Positions 11,551-37,868 of a DNA stretch of 64,000 bases are shown one piece after another. Below the pieces are notes generated by a model that saw only the letters and a list, made by a program, of their open reading frames with translations, was not told the origin of the DNA and searched no databases. The stretch is from assembly GCA_035259575.1 (NCBI GenBank), contig DATFWE010000042.1:4882-68881 (forward strand), given 5' to 3'. The stretch is from Haliangiales bacterium. Its GTDB lineage: Bacteria; Myxococcota_A; Polyangia; Haliangiales; SHYZ01. Every line of letters begins with the position of its first letter. The first letter of the stretch is position 1. Both the position numbers and the translations under genes were made by a program.

Positions 11551-11565
11551 GCGCAGTTTCTGCGC
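11551..11565. promoter_or_regulatory. Palindromic activator-type site
   Basis: GCGCAG-TTT-CTGCGC; a half site (GGAAG-AAT-CTGCG) lies 31 bp downstream at 11583-11595. Confidence 0.6.
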
Positions 11566-11614
11566 CCCCATCCCCGAGCCGGGGAAGAATCTGCGCGCTT
11601 TCCGACGACCTTCC

Positions 11615-11630
11615 GAGCACGCGACTTGCA
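11615..11630 (+). promoter_or_regulatory. Putative sigma54 promoter (non-canonical AG at -24)
   Basis: GAGCACGCGACTTGCA; ATG 11644 lies 15 nt after the -12 C. Confidence 0.5.
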
Positions 11631-11643
11631 GTCTGATCACGTC

Positions 11644-12498
11644 ATGCACACCGTGTCCGAGCTCATGACGCCGAGCCCGATCGTCATCGACGTCCATCAA
11701 CCGTTGGCGGAGGCCTCCGAGCGGATGGAGCAGTTCAGGCTCCGGCATCTGCCGGTCATCGACGCTCGGGGCCGGCTCGTCGGGATCCTGTCCGAGCTCG
11801 ACCTCTATCGCTTCAAGGACAAGCGGCCTCGGGCCGACCTCGAAAACATGGCCGTCGGCGCGGCCATGGACCCGAATCCCTACACCGTGGCGCCGGACGC
11901 TCCCATCACCTCGGTCGCGCGCACCATGGCCGCCCAGCGCATCGGCGCTGCGGTCGTCATGAACGAAGGCCGCGTCGCCGGCGTGTTCACCACCGTCGAC
12001 GCGCTCCGCGGGCTCGCGGCGGCGGACGTGCTCTCCGAGGTCGGTGGCGCGCCGGTGTCGCCGACGGCCGCGCGCAAGGTCCTCTGCCCCATCGACTTCT
12101 CCCCCGGTTCGCGCGAGGCCGTGTGCCACGCGCTCGACCTCGCGCGCGGCTCCGGCGGCTCGGTCACCCTGTTTCACGCCTTCGACGTGCCGGCGGTGTC
12201 GTTCACCCCGGCGATGATCGAGCAGGCCGACGAGCAGGTGCTGGCGTCGCTTCACGAGTGGCGGCTCGACTTCCAGCGTCCCGGCGAGGCCGATATCGCC
12301 GTCGCCAAGGGCATCGGCCCGGCGTGGCGGGCGATCGTGGACTACGCGAAGGCCCACGACTACGACGTCATCGTGATGGGGACGCACGGACGCACCGGGC
12401 TCCCGCGCATGCTGGTGGGCTCGGTGGCGGAGAACGTGACGCGCCACGCGCCCTGCCCGGTGATGATCGTGCGGCGCCGCGAGAGCGATCGCCCATGA
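11644..12498 (+). CDS. CBS-domain pair fused to a universal stress protein domain
   Basis: VSELMTPSP..RLRHLPVID..LVGILS and IGAAVV..VAGVFTTVD (CBS); VLCPIDFS..IVMGTHGRTGLPRMLVGSVAENV.RHAPCPV (USP). Confidence 0.9.
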   Translation: MHTVSELMTPSPIVIDVHQPLAEASERMEQFRLRHLPVIDARGRLVGILSELDLYRFKDKRPRADLENMAVGAAMDPNPYTVAPDAPITSVARTMAAQRIGAAVVMNEGRVAGVFTTVDALRGLAAADVLSEVGGAPVSPTAARKVLCPIDFSPGSREAVCHALDLARGSGGSVTLFHAFDVPAVSFTPAMIEQADEQVLASLHEWRLDFQRPGEADIAVAKGIGPAWRAIVDYAKAHDYDVIVMGTHGRTGLPRMLVGSVAENVTRHAPCPVMIVRRRESDRP

Positions 12499-12517
12499 AG
12501 ACGATCGTGAGGCGGCG

Positions 12518-14179
12518 ATGCATGACCCGTCGTCTGAGACCTCCCGGCTCGACGAGCTGACCGCCGTCGTGGCAAGGCTCGAGGAGCGCGTCGCGAGGCT
12601 CGAACGCGCGCCTGCGGAGTCGAGCGCGCCGCGCCAAGCGCCGCGACCTGCGCCGCGTGCCGAGCCCATGCCGCGGCCACGCTGGCTCGATGCCGCGCTC
12701 CTCGGGCGGAGCTTCATCGTGCTGGGAATCGGTTACCTCCTCCGGGCGATCACCGATCTCCCCGTCGTGCCGGACGCCGTGGGCGCCGGCGTCGGCCTCG
12801 CCTTCGCGGCCGCGCTCCTCGTCCTCGCCGATCGCGCCGGCGCGCGCGGACGTCCTGCGAGCAGCGCCTGCCACGGCGCGACCGCGCTGATCGTCGCGTA
12901 CCCCCTGGTGGCCGAGCTGGTGGCGCGCTACGCGCTCATCGGTGCGGCCGGGAGCGCGGCGCTGGTCGTGGCCTTCAGCATCGCGACGATGGTCGTGGCG
13001 GCGCGCCGTCGGGTCGTCGCCCTGGCCTGGATCGTCACGCCTGCATCTCTGCTCGCGATCGTCGCCCTGGCCACGCAGACGGGTTTGACGGCACCCCACG
13101 CCGCCGCCGTCGTGGCGCTCACCGCGGCATCCGCTTGGCTGGCGCGCCGCCTCCGGCAACGCTTCCTCGTCTGGCCGGTCGCCATCGCCTCCGACCTCGT
13201 CGTCCTCCTGTTCGCGTCGCTGGTCGTGTGGGGGAGGAGCGCCGCCTCGCCGTGGGGCGCGGCCGCCATCGCCCTCCTCTTCTTCGGGCTCTGCGCCGGC
13301 GGCACGATGGCGCGGGCGGTGCGCGACGGCACCGCCACGACGCCATGGGAGAACCTCCAGGCGTCCGCCGCTTTTGTCGTGGGGCTGGTGCCGGCGGCGC
13401 GAATCTCCGCCCAGCTGGCCGGCGGCGCGTTCCTCGGCCTGGCGATGCTCGCCCTCGGCGTCGCCGGCGAGGTCCTCGCCCTGCGTGCGTTCTCGCCGCA
13501 GACCGCCGGACGTACGCTCGCCTTCTGGACGTCGCTCTGGCTGGCCGTGGTCGTGGTCTCGCTCGCCGTCGTCTTCCATGGGCCCGCGCTCGCGCTCGTC
13601 GAGCTCGCGCCGGCGGCGGCCATGCTGATCGTCGTGCGCCGGCGCGAGCACCCGGCGGGTGAGCTCCAGGCGCTCGCGACGATCGTCGTCGCCGCGGCCG
13701 TCTCCGGTGCGCTCGATGATGTCGCGCGCGCGCTGACCGCCCCGCCGCCCGACGTCGCCGCGCCCGGCCCGATCGGGCTCGCGGTCCTCATGGCTCTCGT
13801 CGTCGCCGTTGTCCGCGGCATCCGCGAGCCCCCGCGCGACGCGAGCCTTCCGCGTCGCGCCGCCAAGATGCTCGCGGTGCTGCTGGGCGCGCTCTCTGTC
13901 GCCGGACTCGCCGCCGGGCTCGCCGCCGCGATCCTCCACCCCTCGTTCGCGGCCATGGCGACGATCCGCACGGGCATCCTCTCGCTCTCCGCCGTTGCGC
14001 TCGCGCTCGTCCCGCGGCGGTCGTGCGCGGACCTCGTCTACCCCCTGCTGGCGCTCATCGCCATCAAGATCGGCGTCGAGGACCTGCGGCACGGCGTGGC
14101 GGCGACCCTGTTCGTCAGCCTCGGCCTCTTCGGGCTAACGCTGATCCTGGCGCCGCGCTTCCGCCAGGCCGGCACATGA
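12518..14179 (+). CDS. Polytopic membrane protein, DUF2339-like
   Basis: N-terminal coil RLEERVARLE, Pro-rich linker, then many TM helices. Confidence 0.55.
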   Translation: MHDPSSETSRLDELTAVVARLEERVARLERAPAESSAPRQAPRPAPRAEPMPRPRWLDAALLGRSFIVLGIGYLLRAITDLPVVPDAVGAGVGLAFAAALLVLADRAGARGRPASSACHGATALIVAYPLVAELVARYALIGAAGSAALVVAFSIATMVVAARRRVVALAWIVTPASLLAIVALATQTGLTAPHAAAVVALTAASAWLARRLRQRFLVWPVAIASDLVVLLFASLVVWGRSAASPWGAAAIALLFFGLCAGGTMARAVRDGTATTPWENLQASAAFVVGLVPAARISAQLAGGAFLGLAMLALGVAGEVLALRAFSPQTAGRTLAFWTSLWLAVVVVSLAVVFHGPALALVELAPAAAMLIVVRRREHPAGELQALATIVVAAAVSGALDDVARALTAPPPDVAAPGPIGLAVLMALVVAVVRGIREPPRDASLPRRAAKMLAVLLGALSVAGLAAGLAAAILHPSFAAMATIRTGILSLSAVALALVPRRSCADLVYPLLALIAIKIGVEDLRHGVAATLFVSLGLFGLTLILAPRFRQAGT

Positions 14180-14185
14180 ACGGGG

Positions 14186-14237
14186 CGCAATGCTTGCGGG
14201 GGCGCAAACGCGCCAGGCGGGAAACGCAATCTTTGCG
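14186..14237. promoter_or_regulatory. Pair of perfect CGCAA-N3-TTGCG palindromes (putative enhancer sites)
   Basis: 14186-14198 CGCAA-TGC-TTGCG and 14225-14237 CGCAA-TCT-TTGCG, upstream of a sigma54 element. Confidence 0.72.
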
Positions 14238-14256: not shown

Positions 14257-14273
14257 TTGGCACGGAGTTCGCT
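14257..14273 (+). promoter_or_regulatory. Putative sigma54 promoter of the cyt c-Rieske-cyt b operon
   Basis: TTGGCACGGAGTTCGCT, GG-N10-GC with TGGCACG. Confidence 0.75.
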
Positions 14274-14304: not shown

Positions 14305-14652
14305 ATGAAGCGGCTGAGCGCCATGTTCTTCCTCTCGATGTCTCTCCTCGGTCCCGCCATCGCCTCGGCGGACGACGCCGCGACGAATCGCGTGTTCCGC
14401 GCCAAGTGCGCGTCCTGCCACGGCGAGGACGGCAAGGGACACACCAAGGAAGGCGAGAAGATGAAGGTAGGCGACATGACGTCGGCCGCGTTCCAGAAGG
14501 AGCTCACCGACGAGAAGATCAAGCAGACGATCGAAAACGGCCTGTCCCGCGAGAAGAACGGCGTCAAGCAGGAGATGAAGCCGCTCAAGGACAAGCTCAC
14601 GCCCGAGCAGATCGACGCGCTGGTCAAATACGTCCGCGGGCTGGCCAAGTAG
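14305..14652 (+). CDS. Secreted mono-heme class I cytochrome c
   Basis: AGGAGG SD, signal peptide, CASCH and distal Met (QEMKP). Confidence 0.92.
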   Translation: MKRLSAMFFLSMSLLGPAIASADDAATNRVFRAKCASCHGEDGKGHTKEGEKMKVGDMTSAAFQKELTDEKIKQTIENGLSREKNGVKQEMKPLKDKLTPEQIDALVKYVRGLAK

Positions 14653-14665: not shown

Positions 14666-15124
14666 ATGAGCGATCACGCACCCGCGCCGGTGACGCGAAG
14701 GCGATTCCTCGACGCCCTTCTCGGCGCGGGGCTCGTCGGCTGGCTGGCCACGGTCCTTTACCCGGTGCTGCGTTATCTCAAGCCGCTCAGCTCGACCGGT
14801 CCGGGCGGACCGATCAAACTGTCGGCCGACGAGGCGACCAAGCTCGAGCGGGAACGCTACGTGATCGTGCGCGCCGGCACCAGCCGCGTCCTCGTCTTCG
14901 AAGATGCGGCTCAAGGCCTGCGCGCGCTGTCGGCGAAGTGCACCCACGAGGGGTGCACCGTGCAGTACGTCGCGGGCGAGTCGATCGTCCTGTGCGCGTG
15001 CCACAACGGCCGCTACGACCTCGACGGCCGCGTGCTCGCTGGGCCGCCGCCGCGCCCGCTCGCGCAGTACGAGGCGCAGCGCGACGCCGACGGCTCGATC
15101 CTCGTCAAGCTGGGGACGTCGTGA
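14666..15124 (+). CDS. Rieske 2Fe-2S subunit of a Rieske/cytochrome b complex
   Basis: Tat-like RRRFL plus TM helix; CTHEGC and CACHNG motifs. Confidence 0.93.
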   Translation: MSDHAPAPVTRRRFLDALLGAGLVGWLATVLYPVLRYLKPLSSTGPGGPIKLSADEATKLERERYVIVRAGTSRVLVFEDAAQGLRALSAKCTHEGCTVQYVAGESIVLCACHNGRYDLDGRVLAGPPPRPLAQYEAQRDADGSILVKLGTS

Positions 15125-18015
15125 GCGCACCGGAGCGCCGGCGCGGACGCCTCTTCCGCTGGCTGGACTCGCGCTACCAGCTCCAGCCCGTCGTGGACTT
15201 CCTCGAGCACAAGGAGGTGCCGGTCGGCGTCCACTCACTGATCTGGTACTACCTCGGCGGCACGACGCTGTTCTTCTTCGTCGTGCAGATCGCGTCGGGC
15301 GTGCTGCTCCTCATGTATTACCAGCCCGGCGAGGCCACGGCGTACGAGAGCATCCGCTACATCACCACGAAGGTGCCGTTCGGCTGGCTCATCCGCTCCG
15401 TCCACTGCTGGAGCGCGCACCTGATGATCGTCTCGCTGGTGGCGCACATGTTCTCGACGCTCATGCTCAAGGCCTACCGGCCGCCGCGCGAGCTGACCTG
15501 GGTCACCGGCTTTCTCCTGTTCGCCGTCGCGCTCGGCTTCGGCTTTTCCGGCTATCTCCTGCCGTGGAACGAGCTGTCGTTCTTCGCCACGTCGGTCGGC
15601 ACCGACTCGGTGAAGGAGATCCCGGTCATCGGCGACTGGTTGCTGCAGGTCCTGCGCGGGGGCACCGAGGTGAGCATCAACACGCTCTACCGCTTCTTCG
15701 GGCTGCACGTCGTCATCCTGCCGCTGGCGGCGTTCGCCATCATCGCCGTCCACCTCCTGTTCATCCAGCGCCAGGGCATGGCGCCGCCGGTCCATCCGCC
15801 GGCGACGCCGCGCGCGATGAAGTTCTTCCCCAACTTCGCGGTGCGCGATCTGCTGATCTGGCTCTTGTGCCTGGCGGCGCTGACCAGCCTCGCGGTGTTC
15901 CTGCCGTATGGCCCCGGCGTCCCCGGCGTGGAGTGGGAGCTCGGCAAGAAGGCCAACCCGCTCGCCCCGGCCTACCCGGGGATCAAGCCGGAGTGGTACT
16001 TCCTGTGGGTCTACCAGCTCCTCAAGGAGTTCCCGCCGCACCTGGTCGGCGGCCTGGAAGGCCCGCAGGCGGCGCTGCTGCTCGTCGGCGGGCTGCTCGT
16101 CGTGTGGGCGCTCATCCCGTGGCTCGACCGATCGGCGCGCCGCAACGAGCCCTCCCCGGCCTTCACCGACTTCGGCATGGCGGCGCTCCTGTTCATCGCG
16201 TTCCTGACGCTCAAGGCGTGGGACATCGGCGGGGGCGCAGGCAAGGTGCCGGACGCGCGGGCGGTCGCGTGGACGACGGCCTGGTACGCGCTCGGCGTGG
16301 CGCTCGTCTCGGTAGTCGTGCGCGCGGTCGTGTACCGGCATCGCTGGTTCCTGTTCACCGGGGCGTTCGCCGTCCACGTGGTGCTGCACGGTCTCGTCGG
16401 CCTGCCCTACCTCCTCGCCGGCGCCATCGGCATCGGCGTGCTCCTGGCGGCGCTGGGCGGCCTCAAGCTGCGCGGTCGCGGCGCCGTCGCGCTGCTCGTG
16501 GTCCTCGGCGCCGTCTCGGCGGCGCGCGCCGACGAGCCGCTGCCGCCTGCGCTGCAGAAGATGTTCGACGCCCGCCGGCCCGACGGCGCGCCCGTCATCC
16601 CGCCGGCGCAGCGAGAGTACTTCGCCAAGCTTCCCGATCGCGTGCGCGCCCTCGTCGCCGAAGCGGCCGACGCGACCATCCTCGGCTCGGCCGAGCACGC
16701 CCGCCGTCTGTTCGCGCTGAACCTTCCGCCGACGGCCTTCGAGCTCCTCATCAAGGACAACTGCATCGTCTGCCACACCGATCCAGGCAACGTCGAGGCG
16801 CGCACGCTCTTCTCCGCCGACCCCAAGGCCGACAAGTCGTCGCCGCGCCTCAACCTCAAGGAGTTCGCCAGCGACGTGCACTTCCGCCGCGGCGTGTCCT
16901 GCTCCGGCTGCCACGGCGGCTCGCCCACCGACCTCAACATGACCGACGCCATCGCCGAGCGGTGGCCGAGCGAGGAGGACCGCGCGAAGTCGCACGCCTG
17001 GATCCCGGCGTTCTGCGCGCGCTGCCACAGCGACGCCGCCTACATGCGCTCCTTCAACCAAGCCTTGCCCACCGACCAGCTCGCCAAGTACAAGACCAGC
17101 CGACACGGCCAGCGGCTCCTGGTCGAGGGCGACGACAAGGCGGCCCAGTGCGCGAGCTGCCACGGCGGGCACGGGATCCGCAGCGCGAAGAGCCCCAAGT
17201 CGATGGTCCACCCGCAGCGCGTTCCCGAGACGTGCGGCGCGTGCCACGCCGACGCCCGGTACATGGCCGGCGAGAAGACCGACCGCGGCGAGCCCCTGCC
17301 GACCAATCAGCTCGAACAGTACAGGAAGAGCGCGCACGGCAAGGCCCTCCTCGAGAAGGGCGATCTCGGCGCGCCGGCGTGCAACTCCTGCCACGGCAAT
17401 CACGCCGCGCAGCCGCCCGCCGTCGCCTCCGTGTCGGAAGTCTGCCGCGTTTGCCACGTCACGAACGGCCGGCTGTTCGACGGCTCGAAGCACAAGATCG
17501 CATTCGAGAAGCACGGCTGGCCGGAATGCGCCCAGTGTCATGGCAAGCACGACATCGCCAAGGCGAACGACGAGCTTCTCGCCGACGGGGCCGAGCGGCT
17601 GTGCCACGCTTGCCACGCCAAGGACGCGCCGGACAACAAGGAATGCGACGCCACGGCGAGCCATTTCCACGCGACCCTCGGCGAGCTGGCCGGGTCGATG
17701 ACGGCGTACACCGTCGAGGGCGAGGAGCTGGCGAAGAAGGGCCTCGACGTCGAGCCGCTCACGAACGTGCTCGGCGAGCTCGAGGAGTCGCTCGTCAAGG
17801 CGCGCGAAGGCATCCACAGCTTCGACAAGGACACGTTCGATCGCCTGGCGGATCCGGCGCGCGCGGCCGCGAAAAAGAGCCAGGAGCTCATCGACGCCTC
17901 GCGGAAGGAGTACCGCTTCCGGCAGGGCGGGCTCCTGGCGGCGATCGGTGCGATGTCGCTGCTCGCGCTCGGGATCTACCTCACGCTGCGGCGGATCGAG
18001 TCGCGGAAGCCCTGA
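15121..18015 (+). CDS. Cytochrome b (b6 + subunit IV-like) fused to a C-terminal 9-heme cytochrome c domain
   Basis: GTGA overlap with the Rieske gene; RSVHCWSAH, RPPRELTW, SGYLLPWN, FFGLHV, AVHL and KPEWYFL, then 9 CxxCH and a C-terminal TM helix. Confidence 0.9.
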   Translation: MSAPERRRGRLFRWLDSRYQLQPVVDFLEHKEVPVGVHSLIWYYLGGTTLFFFVVQIASGVLLLMYYQPGEATAYESIRYITTKVPFGWLIRSVHCWSAHLMIVSLVAHMFSTLMLKAYRPPRELTWVTGFLLFAVALGFGFSGYLLPWNELSFFATSVGTDSVKEIPVIGDWLLQVLRGGTEVSINTLYRFFGLHVVILPLAAFAIIAVHLLFIQRQGMAPPVHPPATPRAMKFFPNFAVRDLLIWLLCLAALTSLAVFLPYGPGVPGVEWELGKKANPLAPAYPGIKPEWYFLWVYQLLKEFPPHLVGGLEGPQAALLLVGGLLVVWALIPWLDRSARRNEPSPAFTDFGMAALLFIAFLTLKAWDIGGGAGKVPDARAVAWTTAWYALGVALVSVVVRAVVYRHRWFLFTGAFAVHVVLHGLVGLPYLLAGAIGIGVLLAALGGLKLRGRGAVALLVVLGAVSAARADEPLPPALQKMFDARRPDGAPVIPPAQREYFAKLPDRVRALVAEAADATILGSAEHARRLFALNLPPTAFELLIKDNCIVCHTDPGNVEARTLFSADPKADKSSPRLNLKEFASDVHFRRGVSCSGCHGGSPTDLNMTDAIAERWPSEEDRAKSHAWIPAFCARCHSDAAYMRSFNQALPTDQLAKYKTSRHGQRLLVEGDDKAAQCASCHGGHGIRSAKSPKSMVHPQRVPETCGACHADARYMAGEKTDRGEPLPTNQLEQYRKSAHGKALLEKGDLGAPACNSCHGNHAAQPPAVASVSEVCRVCHVTNGRLFDGSKHKIAFEKHGWPECAQCHGKHDIAKANDELLADGAERLCHACHAKDAPDNKECDATASHFHATLGELAGSMTAYTVEGEELAKKGLDVEPLTNVLGELEESLVKAREGIHSFDKDTFDRLADPARAAAKKSQELIDASRKEYRFRQGGLLAAIGAMSLLALGIYLTLRRIESRKP

Positions 18016-18034: not shown

Positions 18035-18077
18035 CGAATTTCTTGCGCGCATCGGCTCGGGGGACGCAATCGGTGCG
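18035..18077. promoter_or_regulatory. Pair of degenerate CGCAA-N3-TTGCG sites
   Basis: CGAAT-TTC-TTGCG (18035) and CGCAA-TCG-GTGCG (18065), 30 bp apart. Confidence 0.55.
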
Positions 18078-18197: not shown

Positions 18198-18213
18198 CGG
18201 CACGCTGGCTGCA
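18198..18213 (+). promoter_or_regulatory. Putative sigma54 promoter
   Basis: CGGCACGCTGGCTGCA; ATG 18227 lies 15 nt after the -12 C. Confidence 0.65.
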
Positions 18214-18226
18214 ACACCGACGAGCC

Positions 18227-19120
18227 ATGTCGACGCACGATCGGATCGCAACGAGTATCGCGCTCGCGTTCGGGTCCGCGGTGGCGTGGGTGGCGTGCGG
18301 GGGCGGTTCTTCGACGACCTCGCCGCCGGACGCCGCTCCGCCCGACGCGCGCCCGCCGGCGCCGGACGCCGCCCCACCCGACGCCAGCCCTCCGGATGCC
18401 CCGCCGCCCCCGACGCTGACGCTGTCGCTCGATCCCGCGCTCGACACCGACCCCGACACCGTGAAGGCGACGGCGATCACGGCGGCCGACTTGCTCGACA
18501 CGTCCGGCACGGCGGTCGCGCACGCGACTGTTGCGAACGACCAGGCGGTGTTCGCGATCGGCGCTCTCGCGCCAGGTGAGTTCTTCATCAAGGTGAACGG
18601 GGACGCCGACGATCTCGTGCCGACGCGCATCGACAACCCTGCGGCGAGCGTCGTCCAGCGAGTGGGACAGAAGCTGAGGGCAAGCTTGATCGGGCCGGAG
18701 AACAGCCCGGTGTACCGCGTGAACACCTATTCTGCCGGCCAGGGAGAGAGCCCGATCGTGAGATTCTCCGACGGCACGACGATCGCCGGCGAGCAGCCGT
18801 ACATCTTCATCACGCTCGCCCTGCCAAAGGTTGACATCAAGGTCCTGGGGACGGGGGCTCGCGTGAGCACCCTTTTGCCGGGCTCGCAGCTTCACCCGAG
18901 CACGCTCGTGCCCTTCGACGCCTGGATCCTGAACACCAGCGGCCAGCCGCACCACGGGGATGCCTACAACGCGGCGCCCTCATCGTGCAGCGGGTGCCAC
19001 ACGAAGCTCGACATGAAGCCGGCGAGCTATGCCGACATCACCGTCGCGAACGGCTGGTGCTTCCATTGCCACAATGGAACGGCGGGAGACGGCAGCGGCT
19101 TCGTCGATCCTACCCAGTAG
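18227..19120 (+). CDS. Di-heme c-type cytochrome lipoprotein of unknown function
   Basis: Lipobox-like WVAC, Pro/Asp-rich PDAAPP repeats, C-terminal CSGCH and CFHCH. Confidence 0.78.
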   Translation: MSTHDRIATSIALAFGSAVAWVACGGGSSTTSPPDAAPPDARPPAPDAAPPDASPPDAPPPPTLTLSLDPALDTDPDTVKATAITAADLLDTSGTAVAHATVANDQAVFAIGALAPGEFFIKVNGDADDLVPTRIDNPAASVVQRVGQKLRASLIGPENSPVYRVNTYSAGQGESPIVRFSDGTTIAGEQPYIFITLALPKVDIKVLGTGARVSTLLPGSQLHPSTLVPFDAWILNTSGQPHHGDAYNAAPSSCSGCHTKLDMKPASYADITVANGWCFHCHNGTAGDGSGFVDPTQ

Positions 19121-19172: not shown

Positions 19173-22100
19173 TTACCTGTGCACCTCGGCGATGGCCGCC
19201 AGGCGGCCGGGGCCGTGGCAGAGCAGACACTGCTCCTTCGTGGCGCCCGGGGCGAGCACGACGCTGCGCGGCGCGTAGAAGTAGCCGCCCATCGCCTGCA
19301 TGTGGTCGATCGCCACGGGCGTGTCGTGGCACGCGGAGCAGGCCGCGACAATCGGCGACTTCACGAGCGTCGTGGGATCGGCCTCGCACGGCGCCGAGGT
19401 GGAGCACGTCTTGGCGGCCACACCGGTGCACGGAGCAGCGCTGGTGCACGTGCACGGAGCGGCCGCGGTGCAGTTGGTGCCGCCCTGCTTGCCCGAGGTG
19501 ACCCCGGTCACCGTGCACGGGTTGGCAAGGCTGCACGTGCACGGCGTCGCCGGCGTGCAGCTCTGGGTCCCCTGCGTGCCCGTTCGCCCGTCGGGAAGCG
19601 TCGTCGTGAGGTTGGTCGTGGCGAACCCGAGCCCGTAGTCGGTGAAGCCGTCCGCGATGACGTACGGCGAGATGGTGAACCAGCTCGCCGGATTCGTCGT
19701 CGCGTTGTTGTTGTATCGCCCCTTCGCGACTGTGCTCGGCAGCATGCTGGGCAGCGCGGCCATGCTCGTGGCGGAGCTGAAGTCGTAGTCGCCCGCGACG
19801 TGGCACGCCGTGCAGTTGTTGAGCGGCCCGGGGAACTCCACGTGGGAGAAGTTCTCGGTCGCCGACTCCGCGTGCCACGTGAACGCCACGGTGCGCTTGC
19901 GCGCGCCGTGGATCGCGTGGATGAAGTCCTTGGCGTTCCCGCCCCAGCCGCTGGTCGACTGGTTGGGGTTGTGACAGAACGAGCAGGTCGGCCCGTTGTT
20001 GCGCTGCCCGGCGTGGAACGTCGGCGCGGCGCCGAGCGTGACGTGACACTTGAGGCAATTTGCGTTGTCGATGATGACGTGGCGAGCCGTGTATCCCGTC
20101 GCCACCTTGTAGACGTCGGGCGCGGGGACGATCAGGCCGCCTTGCTTCTTGACGGTGTCGTACGGGAACGCGGGGAGATCGATCTCGGTCAGCGGGAACG
20201 CCGACACCAGGTTGTAGGTGTAGCCCACGCCGCCGGTGAGCTGCGCGGCGTTGTTCGGGATCACGACGTTGGGGAGGACGATGGTATAGAAGCCGGACGC
20301 GTCGGGTCCCGTCAGCGTGCCGGCGCCCGTTCCCGTCGCGGTGCCGTTCCAGATGTTCTTGATGTAGCCGCTGGCGGTCGCGTTGTAGTCCGCCGGTGCC
20401 GCGATGCCGTCCTGCGGCACGCTGAACGCGAAGTAGACGCTCGGCGAGCCGACGAAGCCGTCCATGAGCTCGGTGGCGCCGCCGCCGAACGTGGGGAAAG
20501 CGACGTTGCTGCCGTTCTTGAGCAGCTTGAACTTGATCGACGGGCGCTTGACCCCGCCGGCATCGGCGACGGCGTCGACGCTGCTGACGGCGTACGTGAT
20601 GACCGCCGCGCCTTCGGGGACCGCCCCCGCGGCCGCCAGGAATCCCGCGTTCGTGTTGGCGTTCGTGCCGCCATTCAAGATGTTGTTCGGGTCCGGGGGA
20701 GCGATCGGCACGTGGTATCTGCCGATGAGCGCCGGCGTGTGGCACGTGGCGCAGGCGCCGTCGGCGACTGCGCCGCCGGTGTGCTTGCACGGCACGTTCA
20801 AGCCCGTGCCGTCGACCGCGGGCGGATGGACGCACGTCGCGGCGGACGAGGCCGCGGCGAAGTCGACCTGGTCGTGGCACGACGTGCACGCGGCGAGGGT
20901 CGGACGACCCTTCGCCTGCGCGCCTTGCGCCGCGCCGTCGTGGCAGGCGCCGCAGTTGCGGATGTCCTGCGGATAGGTCGCAGCGACGCCGTGGAACACG
21001 TTCTGCGGCTGGAGCGACTCGCCGTTGTGGATGCGGTGCACGAACACCATGGCCTGCGCCGCGGGGTTCGAGACCCGGGCCGGGTTGTGGCACACGACGC
21101 AGTACCGCGCGTCGATGCGGCCGCTGTTGTGGAAGCTGCTCGAGGTCAAGCCCTCGGCGCTGAAGCCGCGGTGGCAGTTGTTGCAGCCCGCGGTCGACGC
21201 GATCTCCCGGTTGAGCGGCGTCCCGGTGGGGTTGTTCGGGATGTAATTGAAATACGTGTTCACCGCGTCGAAGCCCGCCGGGTCGAGCGTGTTGTCGAGG
21301 TTGGTCTGGCGGGAGGCCTCGATCCACACGACGTGCGTGTTCCCCAGCTTGCTCGCGTCGTACGCGACCGCCGTGAAGACGACGCCGTTCGGGGCGCCGG
21401 ACGTGTCGGTCTGCTGCACGTCGGCCGTGGGGAACGTGTAGGTGTACTCGCCGGACAAGGGAACGTCCTCGACGAGCAGTCCGACCGCGGGCGTCCTCGT
21501 CGTCGCGGTGGTCGTGGCGCTGGGGTTGTAGGCGGTCGGCTGGAACCTGGTCTGCGCCGACGCCGAGCTCGCCTGCGTGAGCACGGTGTTCGGCAGGACG
21601 TTCCCGTCGGGGTCCTTGGTGAGGTACGACAGCGAGAACCGCATCGCGATCGGCGTGTTCAGCGTGTAGATCCCGTTCTTGTCCACGGGGAAACCGCGCG
21701 AGTCCTTCATCGAGAACCGGACGGAGATTGCGCCGGACGCGTCGTCGCTGACGCCCTTGATGGCGATCGCCAGCCCGGTGCTCGTGGCCGAAGGGCCCGG
21801 GGTGCCGCCGCATACATACGTCGTCTGCGCGGGGTTCACCTCCGAGGGATCGAGGAGGCCGTTGCCGTTGGCATCGACGCCCATCTCGATCTTGACGCCG
21901 CCGGACGGGCAGTTCGGCCCGGGCGGCTCGGGGCTGGTTTTCACGAGCGTCGGCCGGCCGCTCGAGCCGTTGCAGATGTACGTCGTCTCCGACGCGTTGA
22001 CCTCGCCCGGATCGAGGACGCCGTTCATGTTCGCGTCCACGCCGGTCTCGAGCCTGGTGCCGCCGTTGGCGCAGTGCGCCCCCGGGGGCTCGGGCGTGGT

Positions 22101-22205: not shown

Positions 22206-22242
22206 CACGTCCTCCATCAAGCCGTTCGTACCGACCCGGCCG

Positions 22243-25980: not shown

Positions 25981-25983
25981 GGC

Positions 25984-26322: not shown

Positions 26323-26324
26323 GA

Positions 26325-26543
26325 TCACTCCTTTGCCCGGGGAGGGGCCGCCGCCTCGTCCGGCCGACCCCAAACGAGCCAATAGAGGTAGAGGAGAAGG
26401 CCGATGCCGAGCGCTGCTCCGCCGACCGTCGCGAACGCGATGAACGACAGCGGGTGCGACCAGAACAGGGTGACGAGCTCGACGACGAGCGCCACCATCA
26501 CGAGCGCACACGCGAGGCGCAGCAGCAGCGACGACCGGCTCAT
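26325..26543 (-). CDS. Small two-TM membrane protein (72 aa)
   Basis: ATGA overlap with the NapC-like stop; MSRSSLLLRLACALVMVALVVELVTLFWSHPLSFIAFATVGG... Confidence 0.72.
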   Translation of the reverse strand: MSRSSLLLRLACALVMVALVVELVTLFWSHPLSFIAFATVGGAALGIGLLLYLYWLVWGRPDEAAAPPRAKE

Positions 26544-27160: not shown

Positions 27161-27179
27161 ATGGACACCCGCCCAGCCC

Positions 27180-27196
27180 AGCAACCTGCTTGCCAA
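27180..27196 (-). promoter_or_regulatory. Putative sigma54 promoter of the multiheme operon
   Basis: Minus strand TTGGCAAGCAGGTTGCT. Confidence 0.72.
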
Positions 27197-27235: not shown

Positions 27236-27278
27236 CGCAAATCCTGCGTTTCAGGGCGGCCGAGGCGCGAAAACTGCG
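27236..27278. promoter_or_regulatory. Pair of CGCAA-N3-CTGCG-type sites
   Basis: CGCAA-ATC-CTGCG (27236) and CGCGA-AAA-CTGCG (27266), 30 bp apart. Confidence 0.62.
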
Positions 27279-27774: not shown

Positions 27775-29135
27775 CACACCGTCCTCGAGAAAACGGGTCG
27801 GCGGGCGTCCCCGTGCCCGCGATACGCGTCGAACGCCATCGACACGTTGCGGACGAAGACCCGACCGAGCGGAGTGAGCCGGATGTCGCCGCCGTCGATG
27901 ACGCACAGACCGTCGTCCGCGAGCGCGCGCAGGCGCTCGAGCTCGGGGGCAAATGCGTCGAGCTCGTCGGCCGCGAGCGTCGCGCGGAGGTTGCACATGA
28001 GGTTGCCGATGATCGCCCGCCGCCGCTCGTCGTCGGGGCTGCGCACCCAGCCCCGCTCCACCGGCAGGAGGCCGGCGTCCAGCATGGCCGCGTAGCGCGG
28101 CAGCGTCTTGACGTTCTGCAGGTAGGCGCCGCCGACGTCGCCGATGCCGCTGACGCCGAGCGCGATCGTGCCGGCGCCCCCGCGTCCGGCGGAATAGCCC
28201 TGGAAGTCGCGCCACAACCGCCCCTCCGCGCGGGCGCGCGCGAGCTCGTCGTCGGGCAGCGCGAAGTGATCCATGCCGATGGCGACGTAGCCGGCGTCGA
28301 TGAGGGCGTCGTGGGCCAGGCGAAACAGCGCGAGCTTGGCCGCGCCGGTCGGGAGCTCCGCCACCGGCAGGCGGCGCTGGTGCGGTTTCACCGTCGGGAC
28401 GTACGCGAACGAAAAGAGCGAGATGCGGTCGGGGCGGATCGCCGCGATGCGCTCGATCGTCCGCCGCCATGACGGGGGCGTCTGGCGCGGCAGGCCGTAG
28501 ATGAGGTCGAGGTTGACGCTGCGCAACCCGAGCGAGCGCGCCCCGTCGACCGCCGCGCGCGTCTCCTCCTCCGTCTGGATGCGCGCGATCGCCCGTTGCA
28601 CGTCCTCGTCGAGGTCCTGGACGCCCATGGAGATGCGCCGGAAACCCAGGCGCGCGAGGAGCTCGAGCTGCGTCGTCCGGGTGACCGCGGGGTCGACCTC
28701 GACGGCTAGCTCGGCGTCGGGAAGGATGTCGAACGCGCCGGCGAGGATCGCGTGGAGCTCGGCGAGCTGCCGCTCGTCGAGGAACGTCGGCGTCCCCCCG
28801 CCGAGGTGGACGCGCGAAATCGCCTTCCGCCCGCCGAGGGCGGCCCGCACCAGCGCCGCCTCCTTTCGCACCAGGGCGAGATAGTCGTCGCCCTTCGCTT
28901 GGTTCTTGGTGACGATGACGTGGCACCCGCAGTACGAGCACATCTCGCGGCAGAACGGGATGTGCACGTAGAGCGACAGGGGCTCGGCGCCAGCGCGGGC
29001 GAGCGCCGCCTCGGCCTCGTGCGGGCCGAGGGCGCGCCAGTCCACCGCGGTGGGGTAGCTCGTATAGCGCGGCCCCGGGACGTCGAGTCGACGCGTCATC
29101 TCGTCGGAGAGCGCCGGGAAGTGCGCGTCGGTCAT
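27774..29135 (-). CDS. hemN: Oxygen-independent coproporphyrinogen III oxidase
   Basis: GPRYTSYPT, LSLYVHIPFCREMCSYCGC, HLGGGTP, MDHFAL and RDFQGY motifs. Confidence 0.95.
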   Translation of the reverse strand: MTDAHFPALSDEMTRRLDVPGPRYTSYPTAVDWRALGPHEAEAALARAGAEPLSLYVHIPFCREMCSYCGCHVIVTKNQAKGDDYLALVRKEAALVRAALGGRKAISRVHLGGGTPTFLDERQLAELHAILAGAFDILPDAELAVEVDPAVTRTTQLELLARLGFRRISMGVQDLDEDVQRAIARIQTEEETRAAVDGARSLGLRSVNLDLIYGLPRQTPPSWRRTIERIAAIRPDRISLFSFAYVPTVKPHQRRLPVAELPTGAAKLALFRLAHDALIDAGYVAIGMDHFALPDDELARARAEGRLWRDFQGYSAGRGGAGTIALGVSGIGDVGGAYLQNVKTLPRYAAMLDAGLLPVERGWVRSPDDERRRAIIGNLMCNLRATLAADELDAFAPELERLRALADDGLCVIDGGDIRLTPLGRVFVRNVSMAFDAYRGHGDARRPVFSRTV

Positions 29136-29147
29136 GCGACCGGTTCG

Positions 29148-29163
29148 TGCAAGCCCGAGGCCA
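29148..29163 (-). promoter_or_regulatory. Putative sigma54 promoter of hemN
   Basis: Minus strand TGGCCTCGGGCTTGCA; ATG 29135 lies 14 nt after the -12 C. Confidence 0.7.
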
Positions 29164-29193: not shown

Positions 29194-29237
29194 CGCACAG
29201 CTTGCGCGACGGCCGCGCAAAACCCGCAAAAGCTGCG
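29194..29237. promoter_or_regulatory. Pair of CGCA-N5-TGCG palindromic sites
   Basis: CGCAC-AGC-TTGCG (29194) and CGCAA-AAG-CTGCG (29225), 31 bp apart. Confidence 0.62.
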
Positions 29238-31108: not shown

Positions 31109-33571
31109 TCAGGTCGTCGCGTGCGCCCGCTCCTCGGCCGCCTCGCGATGGGCGAGCGGACGGTACACGATGCGGCACGCGACGCGGCCCTTGTCCCCGT
31201 CGGTGACGTTTGCCGGGATGTACAGGAACGCCGACTCGGTCTCGCACTCGAGGACGCGCGGGCCCCGCTCGACCATGCCGTCGAGCAGCACCCGGCCGGA
31301 GATGTCCTCGGTGTGGTGGGACTCGTGGTCCTGGTACAGGGCGGAGGTGGCGACGAGCTCCACGCTCTCGATCTGCACCCAGGTGTAGCGCCGGCCGAAC
31401 AGCACCGCGACGTTCATGCCGGCCTCGCCGATGGGAACGACGAGGGCGAAGAAGCCGTCGTGCGTCGCGTGCGCGTCGCGGGCGGCGACGGTGGACTCGG
31501 CGCCGCGCGCCAGCACGAACGGCACGTTCTCGCGCCGCACGGTGAAGTCGGCGTGGGCGAAGCTCAACCCATAGCGCTGCTGGGCGAAGTAGGTCACCGC
31601 CATCTCGAGCCCGGCGTAGCGCAGCTCGATGGGGTAGTTCATGCGGCGCCCGGAGTGGCCGTGCTCCATGAAGAACAGTCCGCGCCGGCGCAGGCCGGTC
31701 AGGCCCTCCTCGCGGTCGAACAGGCGGAAGGAGTCGGTGGTGGCCAGGTTCATGTCGAGACGGAAGCCCTCGAGGTAGGCCATCTCATGGCGCGTGGGGA
31801 AGTACGACAGGCGGCCCAGCTGCCCCAGCGCGGCGCGGCGCAGCGACGCGAGATCGGGGCGCTTGCCCGTCGCGGCGAAGAAGCTCTCGGCATCGGCGGC
31901 GAACGCGCGGCACGCCTCCTGCACCGGCTTCACCCGCTCGATCTGGTCGCGCGCGATCACCTGGGGCGCGCCGATCGGCCTCCCCTCCTCGTCGTAGTCG
32001 ACGACGCTGTCCATGTCGGCGGTGCAGATGTCCTCGAGCAGCGCCACCTGATCCACCAGCGACAGCACCCCGCGCTCGTCGCAGCACGACGGGTCGAGGA
32101 GGCCTTTGCGCGAGCGCTCCCACCCGGGCGTGCCCACGACCATGAGGTAGAGCCCGGCGACGTCGACCCCCCACTCCTCGCGAAGCACCGGCTCGAGCAG
32201 GCGCTGCGCCGTGCACTCGTAGCCGAGATCGACGAAGACGAGCGTATCGCCGGGCGCGACGCCGGCGGTGCGCTCGACGTAGCGGCGCAGGCGCGCGCGG
32301 TAGGCGCGCGAGCGCTCGAAGATCGCCGCCATCGTGTCGGGACGGCGGATGCGCCGCATGAACTCGTCGAACGGGCGCGACTTCCTCTTGGCGGCGGCGA
32401 CGATGTCCCTGCCCTGGTCGCCGGCGAGGCCGAGCTGCCGGGCGAGGTCGTCGAGGCGCTGCGTCCCGATGAAGCGCGCCAGGTAGCGCTCGACGTCCTC
32501 GGGCCCGCGGAACGACGCGGCGTAGGCGGCGAAGCGGCTGATGCCCACCTCGTGGCCGACGGGCTCGCCGGCGATCGCGCTGGCCACCTGGCGCGGCAGG
32601 TAGGCGTCGCGCATGAGGAACAGCGGCTTCACGCGCTTGCCGGCGGCGCGCAGGGCGGCGAGCTCGTCGACGATGAACCGCCCGAACGCATACATGATCG
32701 GCCCGGCCGCGGCGTAGCCGAGGAGCTGGTCTCCGTCGGCGGGGGCGCGCCGCTGGGCGAGGACGCCGTGGAACGGGCTGGGCACGCCGGCGGTGTGGCG
32801 CACGCTCGGGTCGAGGAGCGCCATGGCGGTCCCCTGCAGGCGCAGGAGCTCGCACACGTCGGCATCGTTCTGCACGAAGCGAAGCGCGCGCATGCCGGCG
32901 GCGAGCGGCGCCGTCAGGTCGGCGGTCGGGTTGTCGCCGATGTGGAGAACCGCGTCGGGGCGGACGTTGAGCTCGGCGAGGACGTGGCGGAACAGGCCGT
33001 CCGCCTTGCCCTCGCGGAAGCGGCTGGAGCAGAACACGCGCGCGATCGCGGCGTAGGCGTCCTCCGGCAGCACGGCGGCGAGGAGCGCGCGCAGCTCGGT
33101 CTCGTCGAGGTAGGTGTCGCTGACGATCGCGACGCGCAGGCCCTTGCGCCGGGCGGCCCGGATGAGCTCCACCGTCGGGGGAAACGCGAAGCAGGCGTCC
33201 ATCTCGGCGGCGAGCTCGGCGCGGGCGAGCTCGGCGATCTCGGCCTCGCCGAGGTCGGGGAACGCGGCGCGGTAGATCTCGGGGAGCCGCACCTCTGACC
33301 GGCCCTTCTGCAGCCGCCGGAGCGAGCGCGCCAGCGACTCCGCCTGCGCGCGCAGCCGGGCGGTGAGCCCGCGGGCGCGAAACGGCGGCGCGTGCTGGAG
33401 GTCGTAGAAGACGTCGGCGGGGGTGGCCGTCCTGCGGAACAGCAGCGTGTCGAAGCAATCGAGGGACAGAACCTTGATGCGCCCGGCGTGCGCGGCCAGG
33501 GCATCGATGAGCTCGAACGCGCGGACCTCAGGGCGGGCGGCGTCCATGTGCGCGGGGGCGGTCGAGGGCAT
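31109..33571 (-). CDS. HAD phosphatase domain plus PRTase-like domain; probable dual-domain ribofuranosyltransferase-like protein
   Basis: SLDCFDTLLFR, VSDTYL and HIGDNPTAD (HAD); GYAAAGP, LFLMRDA, ISR and FVDLGYECTAQ (glycan phosphoribosyltransferase-like). Confidence 0.6.
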   Translation of the reverse strand: MPSTAPAHMDAARPEVRAFELIDALAAHAGRIKVLSLDCFDTLLFRRTATPADVFYDLQHAPPFRARGLTARLRAQAESLARSLRRLQKGRSEVRLPEIYRAAFPDLGEAEIAELARAELAAEMDACFAFPPTVELIRAARRKGLRVAIVSDTYLDETELRALLAAVLPEDAYAAIARVFCSSRFREGKADGLFRHVLAELNVRPDAVLHIGDNPTADLTAPLAAGMRALRFVQNDADVCELLRLQGTAMALLDPSVRHTAGVPSPFHGVLAQRRAPADGDQLLGYAAAGPIMYAFGRFIVDELAALRAAGKRVKPLFLMRDAYLPRQVASAIAGEPVGHEVGISRFAAYAASFRGPEDVERYLARFIGTQRLDDLARQLGLAGDQGRDIVAAAKRKSRPFDEFMRRIRRPDTMAAIFERSRAYRARLRRYVERTAGVAPGDTLVFVDLGYECTAQRLLEPVLREEWGVDVAGLYLMVVGTPGWERSRKGLLDPSCCDERGVLSLVDQVALLEDICTADMDSVVDYDEEGRPIGAPQVIARDQIERVKPVQEACRAFAADAESFFAATGKRPDLASLRRAALGQLGRLSYFPTRHEMAYLEGFRLDMNLATTDSFRLFDREEGLTGLRRRGLFFMEHGHSGRRMNYPIELRYAGLEMAVTYFAQQRYGLSFAHADFTVRRENVPFVLARGAESTVAARDAHATHDGFFALVVPIGEAGMNVAVLFGRRYTWVQIESVELVATSALYQDHESHHTEDISGRVLLDGMVERGPRVLECETESAFLYIPANVTDGDKGRVACRIVYRPLAHREAAEERAHATT

Positions 33572-33585: not shown

Positions 33586-33601
33586 AGCAAGCCCCATGCC
33601 G
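33586..33601 (-). promoter_or_regulatory. Putative sigma54 promoter
   Basis: Minus strand CGGCATGGGGCTTGCT; ATG 33571 lies 16 nt after the -12 C. Confidence 0.62.
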
Positions 33602-36810: not shown

Positions 36811-36818
36811 GAGGGGCG

Positions 36819-37289
36819 TCAGGAAGCCTTGCGCTCCTGGCGCGCGGCCGCGGCCGGTCCGACGGCGAGGACCGGGCACGGCGCCCGGCGCAGCACCTGC
36901 TCGGCGACCGAGCCGAGGATCGCGCGCTTGATGAAGCCGCGCCCGTGCGTCCCCAGCACGATCACGCCGCACCCCGAGTGGTGCGCGCGGTCGAGGATCC
37001 CTTCGGCCGACATGCCCAGCGCCTGCACCACCTCGACGTGGGGGGCGCCCATCGCCTCGGCGTCCGTCTTCCACTCGTCCAGGCGCTTCCGCGACGCGGC
37101 GACGAGAGCGTCGATCACCTGCCGGCCCGGGAACGGCGCCTCGGGCAGGCTCGCCATCGGCGGCGCGACCGCGTGGTAAAGCTCGAGCGACGCCCCCAGC
37201 TTGACCGCGAGATCCACCGCCACGTCCATCGCGGCGCGCGAGGTATCGGAGAAGTCGACCGGACACAGGATTCGATCCCAGCTCGTCAT
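36819..37289 (-). CDS. Universal stress protein
   Basis: ILCPVDFS..IVLGTHGRG..ILGSVAEQVLRRAPCPVL; GGAGG SD before ATG 37289. Confidence 0.93.
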   Translation of the reverse strand: MTSWDRILCPVDFSDTSRAAMDVAVDLAVKLGASLELYHAVAPPMASLPEAPFPGRQVIDALVAASRKRLDEWKTDAEAMGAPHVEVVQALGMSAEGILDRAHHSGCGVIVLGTHGRGFIKRAILGSVAEQVLRRAPCPVLAVGPAAAARQERKAS

Positions 37290-37314
37290 TCGCATCACCT
37301 CCCAAGGCCGTCAC

Positions 37315-37353
37315 TGCAACGCGCGTACCGCGCCGACTGGCCCGAACCTTGCG
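37315..37353. promoter_or_regulatory. Back-to-back sigma54-like promoters
   Basis: Minus CGGTACGCGCGTTGCA (37330-37315) and plus TGGCCCGAACCTTGCG (37338-37353). Confidence 0.62.
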
Positions 37354-37366
37354 TACGTCGGGATCC

Positions 37367-37783
37367 ATGAACCCCAGCGAAGCGCGTGCGCACATCCTGC
37401 GAGAGCACGACCGGCTGCGCGAGCTGCTCGCGGCCGCCGAGACCGCCGCGGCGCGTCTCCTCGCGGGAGTGGACGATGCGGACCGCTTCCGCGGGATCGT
37501 CGCCGAGCTGCGCACCGCCCTGGCGGAGCACAATGCGCACGAGGAGGCGCTGATCGAGCCGATGCTGGCGGGCGTCGACGCCGTGGCGCCCCTCCGCATC
37601 CGGCGGATGGTCGAGGAGCACGCCGCGGAGCACGCCGCGCTGCGGGCGCACCTCGCCGGCCCGGAGGCGGAGATCGCGCACCGGATGTCGGACCTCGCCG
37701 AGGACCTCCTCGCCCACATGGAAGCGGAAGAGCGCACGTTCCTCCACCCCCGCGTCCTCGGCGACGACACGCCCCGGGGCTGA
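37367..37783 (+). CDS. Hemerythrin-domain protein
   Basis: REHDRL, AEHNAHEE, EEHAAEH and LAHMEAEE iron-ligand pattern. Confidence 0.87.
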   Translation: MNPSEARAHILREHDRLRELLAAAETAAARLLAGVDDADRFRGIVAELRTALAEHNAHEEALIEPMLAGVDAVAPLRIRRMVEEHAAEHAALRAHLAGPEAEIAHRMSDLAEDLLAHMEAEERTFLHPRVLGDDTPRG

Positions 37784-37786
37784 GCG

Positions 37787-37868
37787 CGCAGCGTTTGCGC
37801 CCCGGCGGCCCCACATCGCCGAATATCGCAAGGTCTGCGCCATCCCCGATCTGGGCAGGGGGTCTGCC
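37787..37868 (+). promoter_or_regulatory. Palindrome pair plus weak sigma54-like element
   Basis: CGCAG-CGT-TTGCG (37787), CGCAA-GGT-CTGCG (37827) and GGGCAGGGGGTCTGCC (37853-37868). Confidence 0.55.

Follow-up and report, generated by a model that had tools for sequence, protein, structure and literature searches.

The DNA under study is a stretch of 64,000 nucleotides (hereafter the window) from an uncultured Polyangia myxobacterium of the Haliangiales, and it carries six pairs of a short palindrome, each followed by an element resembling a sigma-54 promoter. It is our view, held at a probability of roughly 0.88, that these palindromes are the S1/S2 enhancer pairs for an orthologue of the response regulator NmpR, encoded elsewhere in the same genome on a contig designated C301. 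In Myxococcus xanthus, NmpR is an NtrC-like response regulator which binds GCGCA-N5-TGCGC (McAllister et al. 2025, J Bacteriol, PMC11841059). An original prediction, made from the letters of the window, had assigned the palindromes to an undescribed low-oxygen regulon controlled by an unknown bacterial enhancer-binding protein (bEBP). Neither adjective survives, given that the consensus, the two-site spacing and the core targets are known for NmpR (PMC11841059, PMC6211767) and that a complete nmpR / nmpU-nmpT-nmpS locus is present on C301; the low-oxygen character that it attributed to the targets is supported. The switch is already known, and as such no new regulatory principle has been discovered; what is new is the host and the targets that have been added. 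An experimentally defined NmpR switch can thereby be assigned to an uncultured soil bacterium of the Polyangia in which the regulon is readable from DNA alone, and the predicted targets exceed the M. xanthus set by multihaem electron-transfer operons and clade II nosZ.

The window spans C42:4882-68881 (contig DATFWE010000042.1 of assembly GCA_035259575.1) and is 71% G+C; the assembly comprises 6.78 Mb in 363 contigs. Genes of the window and of the genome were called by GC3, and those of relevance were annotated with Pfam. Computation in this work established the sites and the way they pair, along with the sigma-54 elements, the regulator locus and the conservation in relatives.

Paired palindromes in the window

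The features on which the argument turns are as follows, with centres given relative to the predicted transcription start site (TSS) and sigma-54 elements scored out of 22.

11506..11521, minus strand: sigma-54 promoter of ccoI, CGGCACCCTCCTTGCT, 20.5/22
11552..11564: proximal ccoI site, centre -63 from the predicted ccoI TSS
11583..11595: degenerate partner GGGAAGAATCTGCGC, 31 bp from 11552, 2 deviations, 12.0 bits, ccoI centre -94
11615..11630, plus strand: possible sigma-54-like element of the CBS-USP gene, GAGCACGCGACTTGCA, weak, AG instead of GG at -24
14186..14198: distal site of the cytochrome c-Rieske-cytochrome b operon, 15.6 bits, centre -92
14225..14237: proximal site of the same operon, 20.5 bits, centre -53
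14258..14273, plus strand: sigma-54 promoter of the same operon, TGGCACGGAGTTCGCT, 20.5/22
18035..18077: pair of the di-haem lipoprotein gene, 18035/18065, 30 bp apart, 2 deviations each
18198..18213, plus strand: sigma-54 promoter of the di-haem lipoprotein gene, CGGCACGCTGGCTGCA, 20/22, ending 14 nt 5' of the ATG at 18227
27180..27195, minus strand: sigma-54 promoter of the multihaem operon, TGGCAAGCAGGTTGCT, 21/22, the best of the window
27236..27278: pair of the NapC/NirT-MtrC-like operon, 27236/27266, 30 bp apart, centres -73 / -103
29148..29163, minus strand: sigma-54 promoter of hemN, TGGCCTCGGGCTTGCA, 18.5/22
29194..29237: hemN pair, 29194/29225, 31 bp apart, 0 and 1 deviations, centres -63 / -94
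37787..37839: CoA-ligase pair, 37787/37827, 40 bp apart, 0 and 1 deviations, centres -86 / -46
37853..37868, plus strand: weak sigma-54-like element of the CoA-ligase gene, GGGCAGGGGGTCTGCC, 18/22

All twelve positions named by the original prediction are present, with centre-to-centre spacings as it claimed (31, 39, 30, 30, 31 and 40 bp, in order). The consensus that it gave, CGCAR-N3-YTGCG, is exact in seven of the twelve (11552, 14186, 14225, 27236, 29225, 37787 and 37827), and the remaining five are off by one or two bases: 11583 reads GGAAG..TGCG, 18035 CGAAT..TGCG and 27266 CGCGA..TGCG, while 18065 has an inner G where Y is expected and 29194 an inner C where R is expected. Even in this strict form the pattern has 8 occurrences in the window where 0.99 would be expected, a count reached by none of 100 dinucleotide shuffles. 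The eighth strict match, at 36237, is single and within a coding region and looks like chance; single coding-region matches of this kind (36237, 22478, 8108 and similar) were treated as chance throughout. Written as the 15-mer GCGCA-N5-TGCGC, each of the twelve sites has no more than two deviations, two per site also being the maximum in the search rule applied to M. xanthus (PMC11841059).

A position weight matrix (PWM) was built from the sites, and a pair was counted in the window when both members scored at least 12 bits and lay 28-42 bp apart. Six such pairs were observed, against a mean of 0.003 in 300 first-order Markov simulations; as the matrix was trained on the same sites, it is the strict-pattern count that serves as the independent test. 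A genome-wide PWM scan (at least 12 bits for each site; 30, 31, 39 or 40 bp) returned only nine pairs, six of them in the window, and the other three on separate contigs:

C135:10170/10200
C232:39881/39920
C301:54427/54457

The 18 sites of these nine pairs all lie within 0-2 deviations of GCGCA-N5-TGCGC, and the GCA-N5-TGC core is intact in 14; one half-site is altered in 11583, 18035, 27266 and C232:39881, each of which is the weaker member of its pair. Between S1 and S2 the pairs of the window have gaps of 15, 15, 16, 16, 24 and 25 nt, and those on the other contigs have gaps of 15, 24 and 15 nt. Promoters of M. xanthus likewise carry two sites (S1 and S2), with a gap of mostly 14-15 nt, and of 24 nt at nmpU (PMC11841059). 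The bare core CGCA-N5-TGCG shows no enrichment genome-wide (353 matches, 31 of them intergenic, close to the numbers for other spacers), so that single sites are little informative and only pairs carry information; in the rest of the genome, high-scoring single intergenic sites lack both a partner and a sigma-54-like element. The signal is pairing and clustering, not core frequency, and six of the nine predicted NmpR-type promoters are grouped within 27 kb.

Sigma-54 promoters and predicted targets

Once gene starts had been corrected, all six pairs of the window proved to be intergenic, and downstream of each lies a -24/-12 sigma-54-like element oriented as the next gene; rpoN is encoded in the genome. 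Across the whole window only six sigma-54-like matches reach at least 20/22, and four of these are directly downstream of a pair. The centres of proximal sites fall at -53, -63 or -73, which is to say in a 10-bp phase. The earlier proposal, that the palindromes are intergenic pairs of upstream activating sequences, adjoining sigma-54 promoters and serving a bEBP, is supported. NmpR sites in M. xanthus are also situated upstream of sigma-54 promoters (PMC11841059).

The first promoter of the window leads into ccoI, a P-type ATPase gene whose start codon (GTG/ATG at 11495/11492) is approximately at the predicted TSS, followed by the ccoNO cbb3 oxidase gene (Pfam). The 11583 site is distal relative to ccoI and proximal relative to the divergent CBS-USP gene (11644-12498, domains CBS and Usp by Pfam), and the pair 11552/11583 may perhaps serve this gene as well; CBS-USP is a tentative target, however, because its -24 motif has AG and not GG. 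Behind TGGCACGGAGTTCGCT comes a putative operon of cytochrome c (14305-14652), Rieske (14666-15124) and cytochrome b-multihaem fusion (15121-18015) genes (Pfam), and behind CGGCACGCTGGCTGCA the di-haem lipoprotein gene (18227-19120), with the lipoprotein signal peptide MSTHDRIATSIALAFGSAVAWVAC and with site centres at -183 / -153, more distant than at the other promoters. On the minus strand, TGGCAAGCAGGTTGCT heads the NapC/NirT ... MtrC-like multihaem operon, which probably runs from 27163 down to 19173 (Pfam), and TGGCCTCGGGCTTGCA heads hemN (27774-29135, ATG at 29135, Radical_SAM and HemN_C by Pfam), after which a further gene lies at 27283-27777. The last pair faces the CoA-ligase gene, an AMP-ligase/enoyl-CoA-hydratase (crotonase) fusion at 37869/37887-40139 (Pfam). 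The original prediction had named cco, the bc-like operon, the multihaem operon, hemN and the USP/hemerythrin/CoA-ligase genes, and was imprecise in allotting 37787/37827 to USP and hemerythrin: the hemerythrin reading frame has already ended where this pair begins, and it is the CoA-ligase gene that the pair faces.

The USP and hemerythrin genes have the following features of their own.

Within 37315..37353, minus strand: USP sigma-54-like promoter CGGTACGCGCGTTGCA, 19/22; USP gene 36819-37289
Within 37315..37353, plus strand: hemerythrin sigma-54-like promoter TGGCCCGAACCTTGCG, 19/22; hemerythrin gene 37367-37783
37389..37401: single NmpR-like site GCGCACATCCTGCGA, 1 deviation, 12.6 bits, inside the 5' end of the hemerythrin open reading frame

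The two promoters stand back-to-back and almost overlap in a divergent region of 78 bp. The 37389 site precedes the USP promoter by about 90 bp, and no convincing partner for it was found.

As predicted from the DNA, then, the regulon in the window would comprise ccoI-ccoNO, CBS-USP (tentatively), hemN, the cytochrome c-Rieske-cytochrome b/multihaem operon, the NapC/NirT-MtrC-like operon, the di-haem lipoprotein and the CoA-ligase fusion, and on other contigs nmpR itself, a HAD hydrolase and a clade II nosZ cluster. The M. xanthus regulon, as defined by electrophoretic mobility shift assays and lacZ fusions, takes in two nmp operons (that of nmpR, with the CBS gene at its head, and that of nmpU), USP, a P-type ATPase together with the cbb3 oxidase genes, hemN with hemerythrin, and pilR (PMC11841059).

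A candidate regulator on contig C301

The supposition that the bEBP would be encoded outside the window was sound, as one of the three remaining pairs lies directly upstream of a candidate gene on C301, in the following arrangement.

C301:52981-54357, minus strand: candidate nmpR orthologue, 458 aa
C301:54441-54869, minus strand: CBS-domain protein
C301:54953-56119, divergent: nmpU, Protoglobin-HisKA-HATPase kinase
Ending at C301:56813: nmpT, two-receiver-domain protein
Ending at C301:57888: nmpS, REC-HisKA-CA hybrid kinase

The nmpR product matches the Pfam families REC (1e-28), Sigma54_activat (5e-72) and HTH_8 (5e-14), and the sites of its upstream pair are perfect or near-perfect, from which autoregulation of nmpR is predicted. 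Approximately 62 Sigma54_activat proteins are encoded in the genome, among them one NmpR orthologue, with the next paralogue only 51% identical to it. According to Bretl et al. 2018 (PMC6211767), nmpRSTU form a contiguous block in other myxobacteria, for which the CBS gene serves as a landmark. The region before nmpU yielded no sites in the present genome.

For a direct comparison with the M. xanthus proteins, short NmpU and NmpR peptides were deduced from the published table of mutagenesis primers (PMC11841059). The haem-histidine segment RIGRMHVRIA is identical in the C301 kinase and in the M. xanthus NmpU peptide from the H96A primers, the histidine being residue 95 counted from METLF in the former and H96 counted from MAETLF in the latter; in the primer-deduced NmpU stretch as aligned, 11 of the 12 residues agree, those of RIGRMHVRIA included. 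From the primers for D54 and V87 came the NmpR peptides EFSPAVVLTDVRMP and ATFVMMTAFASVETA, and the C301 bEBP is identical to them at 16 of 29 specified residues, scoring 32.7 bits against 26.2 for the next paralogue among the approximately 62 compared. A 46-nt stretch of NmpR rebuilt from the primers had no match in 400 genomes of the phylum, and M. xanthus is therefore outside that sample.

Conservation in related genomes

Among 40 relatives of the same order, an NmpR orthologue group at 64-78% identity is represented in 29, with paralogues mostly at or below 52% and a few at 56-59%. Alignment of the upstream regions revealed two GCA-N5-TGC dyads and then the sigma-54 promoter CTGGCACG-N4-TCGCT in 27 of these 29 orthologues, which cover some 13 genera. 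A further 80 loci were drawn from named assemblies, all of them Polyangia or other Myxococcota metagenome-assembled genomes (MAGs); a pair precedes the nmpR-like gene in 28 of the 75 with enough upstream DNA, mostly at 29-31 bp, and many of these loci have NmpU/T/S-like, CBS, USP, CcoI/CcoNO or HemN genes within 8 kb. Genomes with the orthologue contain on average about 3 exact pairs and those without it about 0.7, set against about 0.9 for a control with the reversed pattern.

Conservation at the individual targets is less even. Homologues of ccoI reached the threshold in only four relatives; in G001 a clear pair is present with a spacing of 30 bp, and the other three show single or distant sites. 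No close homologues of the Rieske/cytochrome b-multihaem operon (14666-18015) or the NapC-led operon (19173-27163) were found in the 40 same-order relatives, and both appear to be lineage-specific genes put under NmpR-type promoters. In L062, one of the Polyangia MAGs, a NapC-like gene (54% identity) does neighbour an NmpR-like gene, which suggests a patchy or horizontal distribution of the multihaem operons.

Two variations at nmpR itself were encountered. Three loci (L027, L028 and L029, corresponding to G027, G021 and G032) have three dyads upstream of nmpR, the third of which, GCGCAAGATGTGCGC, adjoins the start codon, and their upstream regions have no recognisable -24/-12 element; another promoter arrangement or autorepression may be at work there. 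Some Polyangia also possess two NmpR-like genes with 71-78% identity to the query, sometimes on one contig; examples are L061/L063, 14 kb apart on a single contig, and G009:C135 and G006, with two copies each. The pattern is suggestive of a lineage-specific duplication.

A possible link to nosZ

The pair on C232 precedes a cytochrome c gene that is followed by clade II nosZ and nosD/F-like genes, and its site centres lie at -53 / -92 from the sigma-54 element CGGCATCGCGCTTGCT. Of 13 nosZ-bearing relatives, 12 have NmpR-like sites in the corresponding position, approximately 500-650 bp ahead of nosZ, several of them as pairs 29-31 bp apart. The one nosZ-bearing relative with no NmpR-like sites upstream of nosZ (G028, locus L150) is also without an intact NmpR orthologue, its best full-length match being 51% identical and accompanied by a 62% fragment that contains a stop codon. 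Our literature search found no report tying clade II nosZ to sigma-54 or bEBP control in myxobacteria, and the Nmp targets in facultatively anaerobic myxobacteria have been stated to be unknown (McAllister et al. 2025, PMC11841059).

These observations allow a broader proposal, for and against which we find the balance to be even: that in this Polyangia order NmpRSTU has expanded from an oxygen-utilisation regulon into the main switch of anaerobic respiration, directly activating clade II nosZ together with, in the present lineage, a recently acquired quinol-to-surface conduit of multihaem proteins (NapC/NirT to MtrC-like) and a Rieske/cytochrome b-multihaem complex, such that the use of N2O by soil myxobacteria would be gated by a haem-globin sensor through sigma-54 and not by control of the FNR, NnrR or NosR type. 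If this is confirmed, a globin-coupled kinase relay would set the O2 threshold of N2O reduction in abundant soil N2O consumers.

Proposed mechanism and alternative explanations

From the features above and from the M. xanthus system we infer that the sites are in fact bound, in which direction oxygen acts and how far the operons extend. In M. xanthus, NmpU, a protoglobin kinase active with O2, inhibits NmpS (REC-HisKA-CA), which phosphorylates NmpR, and NmpT is a two-receiver phospho-sink; the M. xanthus CBS gene exhibits an NmpR-dependent rise in expression in hypoxia (PMC11841059). By analogy, the haem-protoglobin kinase NmpU of the present organism would be active in O2 and hold the hybrid kinase NmpS off, and a fall in O2 would allow NmpS to phosphorylate NmpR and so turn the regulon on. 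Dimers of NmpR would occupy two GCGCA-N5-TGCGC sites separated by three or four helical turns, and the active oligomer would assemble upstream of the start site, at a distance of 45-105 bp (150-185 bp at one gene), where its hydrolysis of ATP would open the sigma-54 RNA polymerase sitting on the -24/-12 element.

Several observations weigh against assigning the pairs to NmpR. The pair of the 18227 gene is unusually remote from its promoter (-153/-183), and USP and hemerythrin have sigma-54-like promoters without a clear site pair. Four weaker sites (11583, 18035, 27266 and C232:39881) have the GCA-N5-TGC core broken in one half-site, and it is a broken core that set unbound apart from bound probes in M. 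xanthus (PMC11841059). The promoters of the CoA-ligase and HAD-hydrolase genes are weak, and that of nmpR in the present genome has TTGAA, not TTGC, at -12. Furthermore, the putative orthology to M. xanthus NmpR (MXAN_4240) and NmpU (MXAN_4246) derives from primer-deduced peptides only, and no RNA sequencing runs covering the stretch were found, the only runs that carry it being soil metagenome DNA.

Three other explanations of the palindromes deserve to be considered alongside NmpR. With approximately 62 Sigma54_activat proteins encoded, another bEBP might bind the sites, their likeness to the NmpR box having arisen by convergence or reflecting a paralogue of identical helix-turn-helix (HTH) specificity; the two NmpR-like copies (71-78% identity) of some relatives lend this some colour, as does the fact that binding by the C301 protein is a prediction. 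We nonetheless judge it unlikely, given that the genome has a single orthologue with the next paralogue at 51% identity, that a pair lies directly upstream of nmpR here and in 27 of the 29 aligned orthologues, that the linked nmpUTS and CBS genes fit the published system, that pair counts follow the presence of the orthologue, and that G028 is without both the orthologue and the nosZ sites. Less probable still is that the palindromes are operators of a factor other than a bEBP, such as a Crp/Fnr-family protein or a repressor, and are near sigma-54-like sequences only by chance. Such a dyad of 13-15 bp is admittedly generic for a dimer operator, several sites are near promoters, and two Crp/Fnr-family proteins are encoded above the Pfam cut-off. 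The dyad is GCA-N5-TGC, however, and not TTGAT-N4-ATCAA; no FNR, FixK or CRP boxes were found in the window, where TTGAT-N4-ATCAA and TTGA-N6-TCAA each occur 0 times (3 and 12 times genome-wide, respectively). Pairs three or four turns apart with proximal centres at -53, -63 and -73 in a 10-bp phase have the geometry of enhancers, which fits neither sigma-70 class I/II activation nor operator overlap, and the same box has been identified experimentally as the NmpR site (PMC11841059). The original prediction was right that the window has no FNR box; its further claim, that the regulator replaces FNR/FixK, is unproven, since the two Crp/Fnr-family proteins are still encoded.

The possibility that the palindromes are mere chance matches in a 71% G+C genome, or structural repeats at gene ends of the kind formed by terminator-like or repetitive extragenic palindrome (REP)-like hairpins, draws on the bare core being no commoner than other spacers genome-wide and on several copies lying directly past the stop codons of upstream genes. 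It is essentially refuted by the six pairs observed where 0.003 are expected, by a stem of 4-5 bp around a 5-nt loop, which makes no terminator, and by what has been kept across genera, namely a sequence and its placement with respect to the sigma-54 promoters, with no structure conserved. The terminator/REP reading was rejected on two of these grounds, the shortness of the stems and the conservation of a sequence and of where it lies with respect to -24/-12.

Other features of the window

Within the respiratory genes, ccoN and ccoO are fused into one protein of 770 aa with COX1 and FixO domains (6720-9032). A single strong NmpR-like site, CGCGGATTTTGCG (22478-22490, 15.3 bits), is found within the multihaem gene 22243-23322, and could be an internal enhancer or chance. 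The start codons of ccoI, hemN, hemerythrin, the di-haem lipoprotein and the NapC-like gene fall approximately 13-25 nt past the -12 element, in these regions:

11490-11521
18198-18229
27160-27195
29133-29163
37338-37369

At so short a distance the predicted transcripts would be leaderless or have leaders of only a few nucleotides; a clear Shine-Dalgarno sequence is evident only at the cytochrome c gene (14305) and at USP.

A further sigma-54-like element, CGGCATGGGGCTTGCT (33586-33601, minus strand, 20/22), is intergenic and upstream of an 820-aa HAD-domain gene (31109-33571). There are no NmpR-type sites near it, and it may therefore serve another bEBP. The respiratory island is flanked by two pairs of a PadR regulator and a MacB/FtsX-type permease (36435-36767/33680-36442 and 46801-47136/44189-46804), as well as by two ChrB-domain genes (40148-40639 and 43124-44140).

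Comparison with known systems

The classical precedent for this promoter architecture is E. coli NtrC (GlnG) at glnAp2, where paired dyads upstream of a sigma-54 promoter are bound by an oligomerising REC-AAA+-Fis-HTH activator. The paired dyads, the sigma-54 promoter and the type of activator are alike in the present system, whereas the NtrC half-sites are TGCACC...GGTGCA with a longer spacer and respond to nitrogen; the sites described here are also nearer to the promoter (-45 to -105) than those of NtrC at glnAp2. In terms of physiology the closer parallel is with FNR/FixK and FixLJ, which in Proteobacteria bring about the low-O2 induction of cbb3 oxidase, hemN and nos genes. The output would be the same here, namely a high-affinity oxidase, an O2-independent coproporphyrinogen oxidase and N2O reductase. 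FNR, however, is a [4Fe-4S] sensor of the Crp family that acts at sigma-70 class II promoters from a box with its centre near -41.5, in contrast to the haem-globin kinase relay and the sigma-54 promoters with enhancers seen here, and the box differs too.

Nearer in lineage is the AfGcHK system of Anaeromyxobacter sp. Fw109-5 (Kitanishi et al. 2011, via PMC6211767 and PMC11841059), which, as far as it is described in those accounts, resembles ours in that a protoglobin-HisKA-HATPase kinase precedes a two-receiver protein, that an nmpR homologue and a CBS gene are nearby, and that the host lineage is facultatively anaerobic. Its downstream regulon is stated to be unknown, whereas in the present genome a regulon is readable from the DNA.

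It is with NmpRSTU of M. xanthus that the correspondence is most extensive. The two systems are alike in the consensus GCGCA-N5-TGCGC, in paired sites with gaps of 14-16 or 24-25 nt, in the downstream sigma-54 promoter, in a REC-AAA+-HTH_8 regulator with linked NmpU, NmpT, NmpS and CBS genes, and in the autoregulation of nmpR (predicted in our case). The paired-site targets common to both are the P-type ATPase-cbb3 genes, hemN and, tentatively, the CBS/USP gene; USP and hemerythrin are shared as well, here with sigma-54-like promoters and one single site only. M. xanthus is an obligate aerobe that is without several targets of the present genome. The host described here differs in belonging to the Polyangia and not the Myxococcia and in being an uncultured soil MAG; its nmpR has its own promoter directly upstream and is not inside a CBS-led operon, and its nmpU has no sites before it that we could find. 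To the shared set of targets the present genome would add the Rieske/cytochrome b-multihaem operon, the NapC/MtrC-like operon, the di-haem lipoprotein, the CoA ligase, the HAD hydrolase and clade II nosZ.

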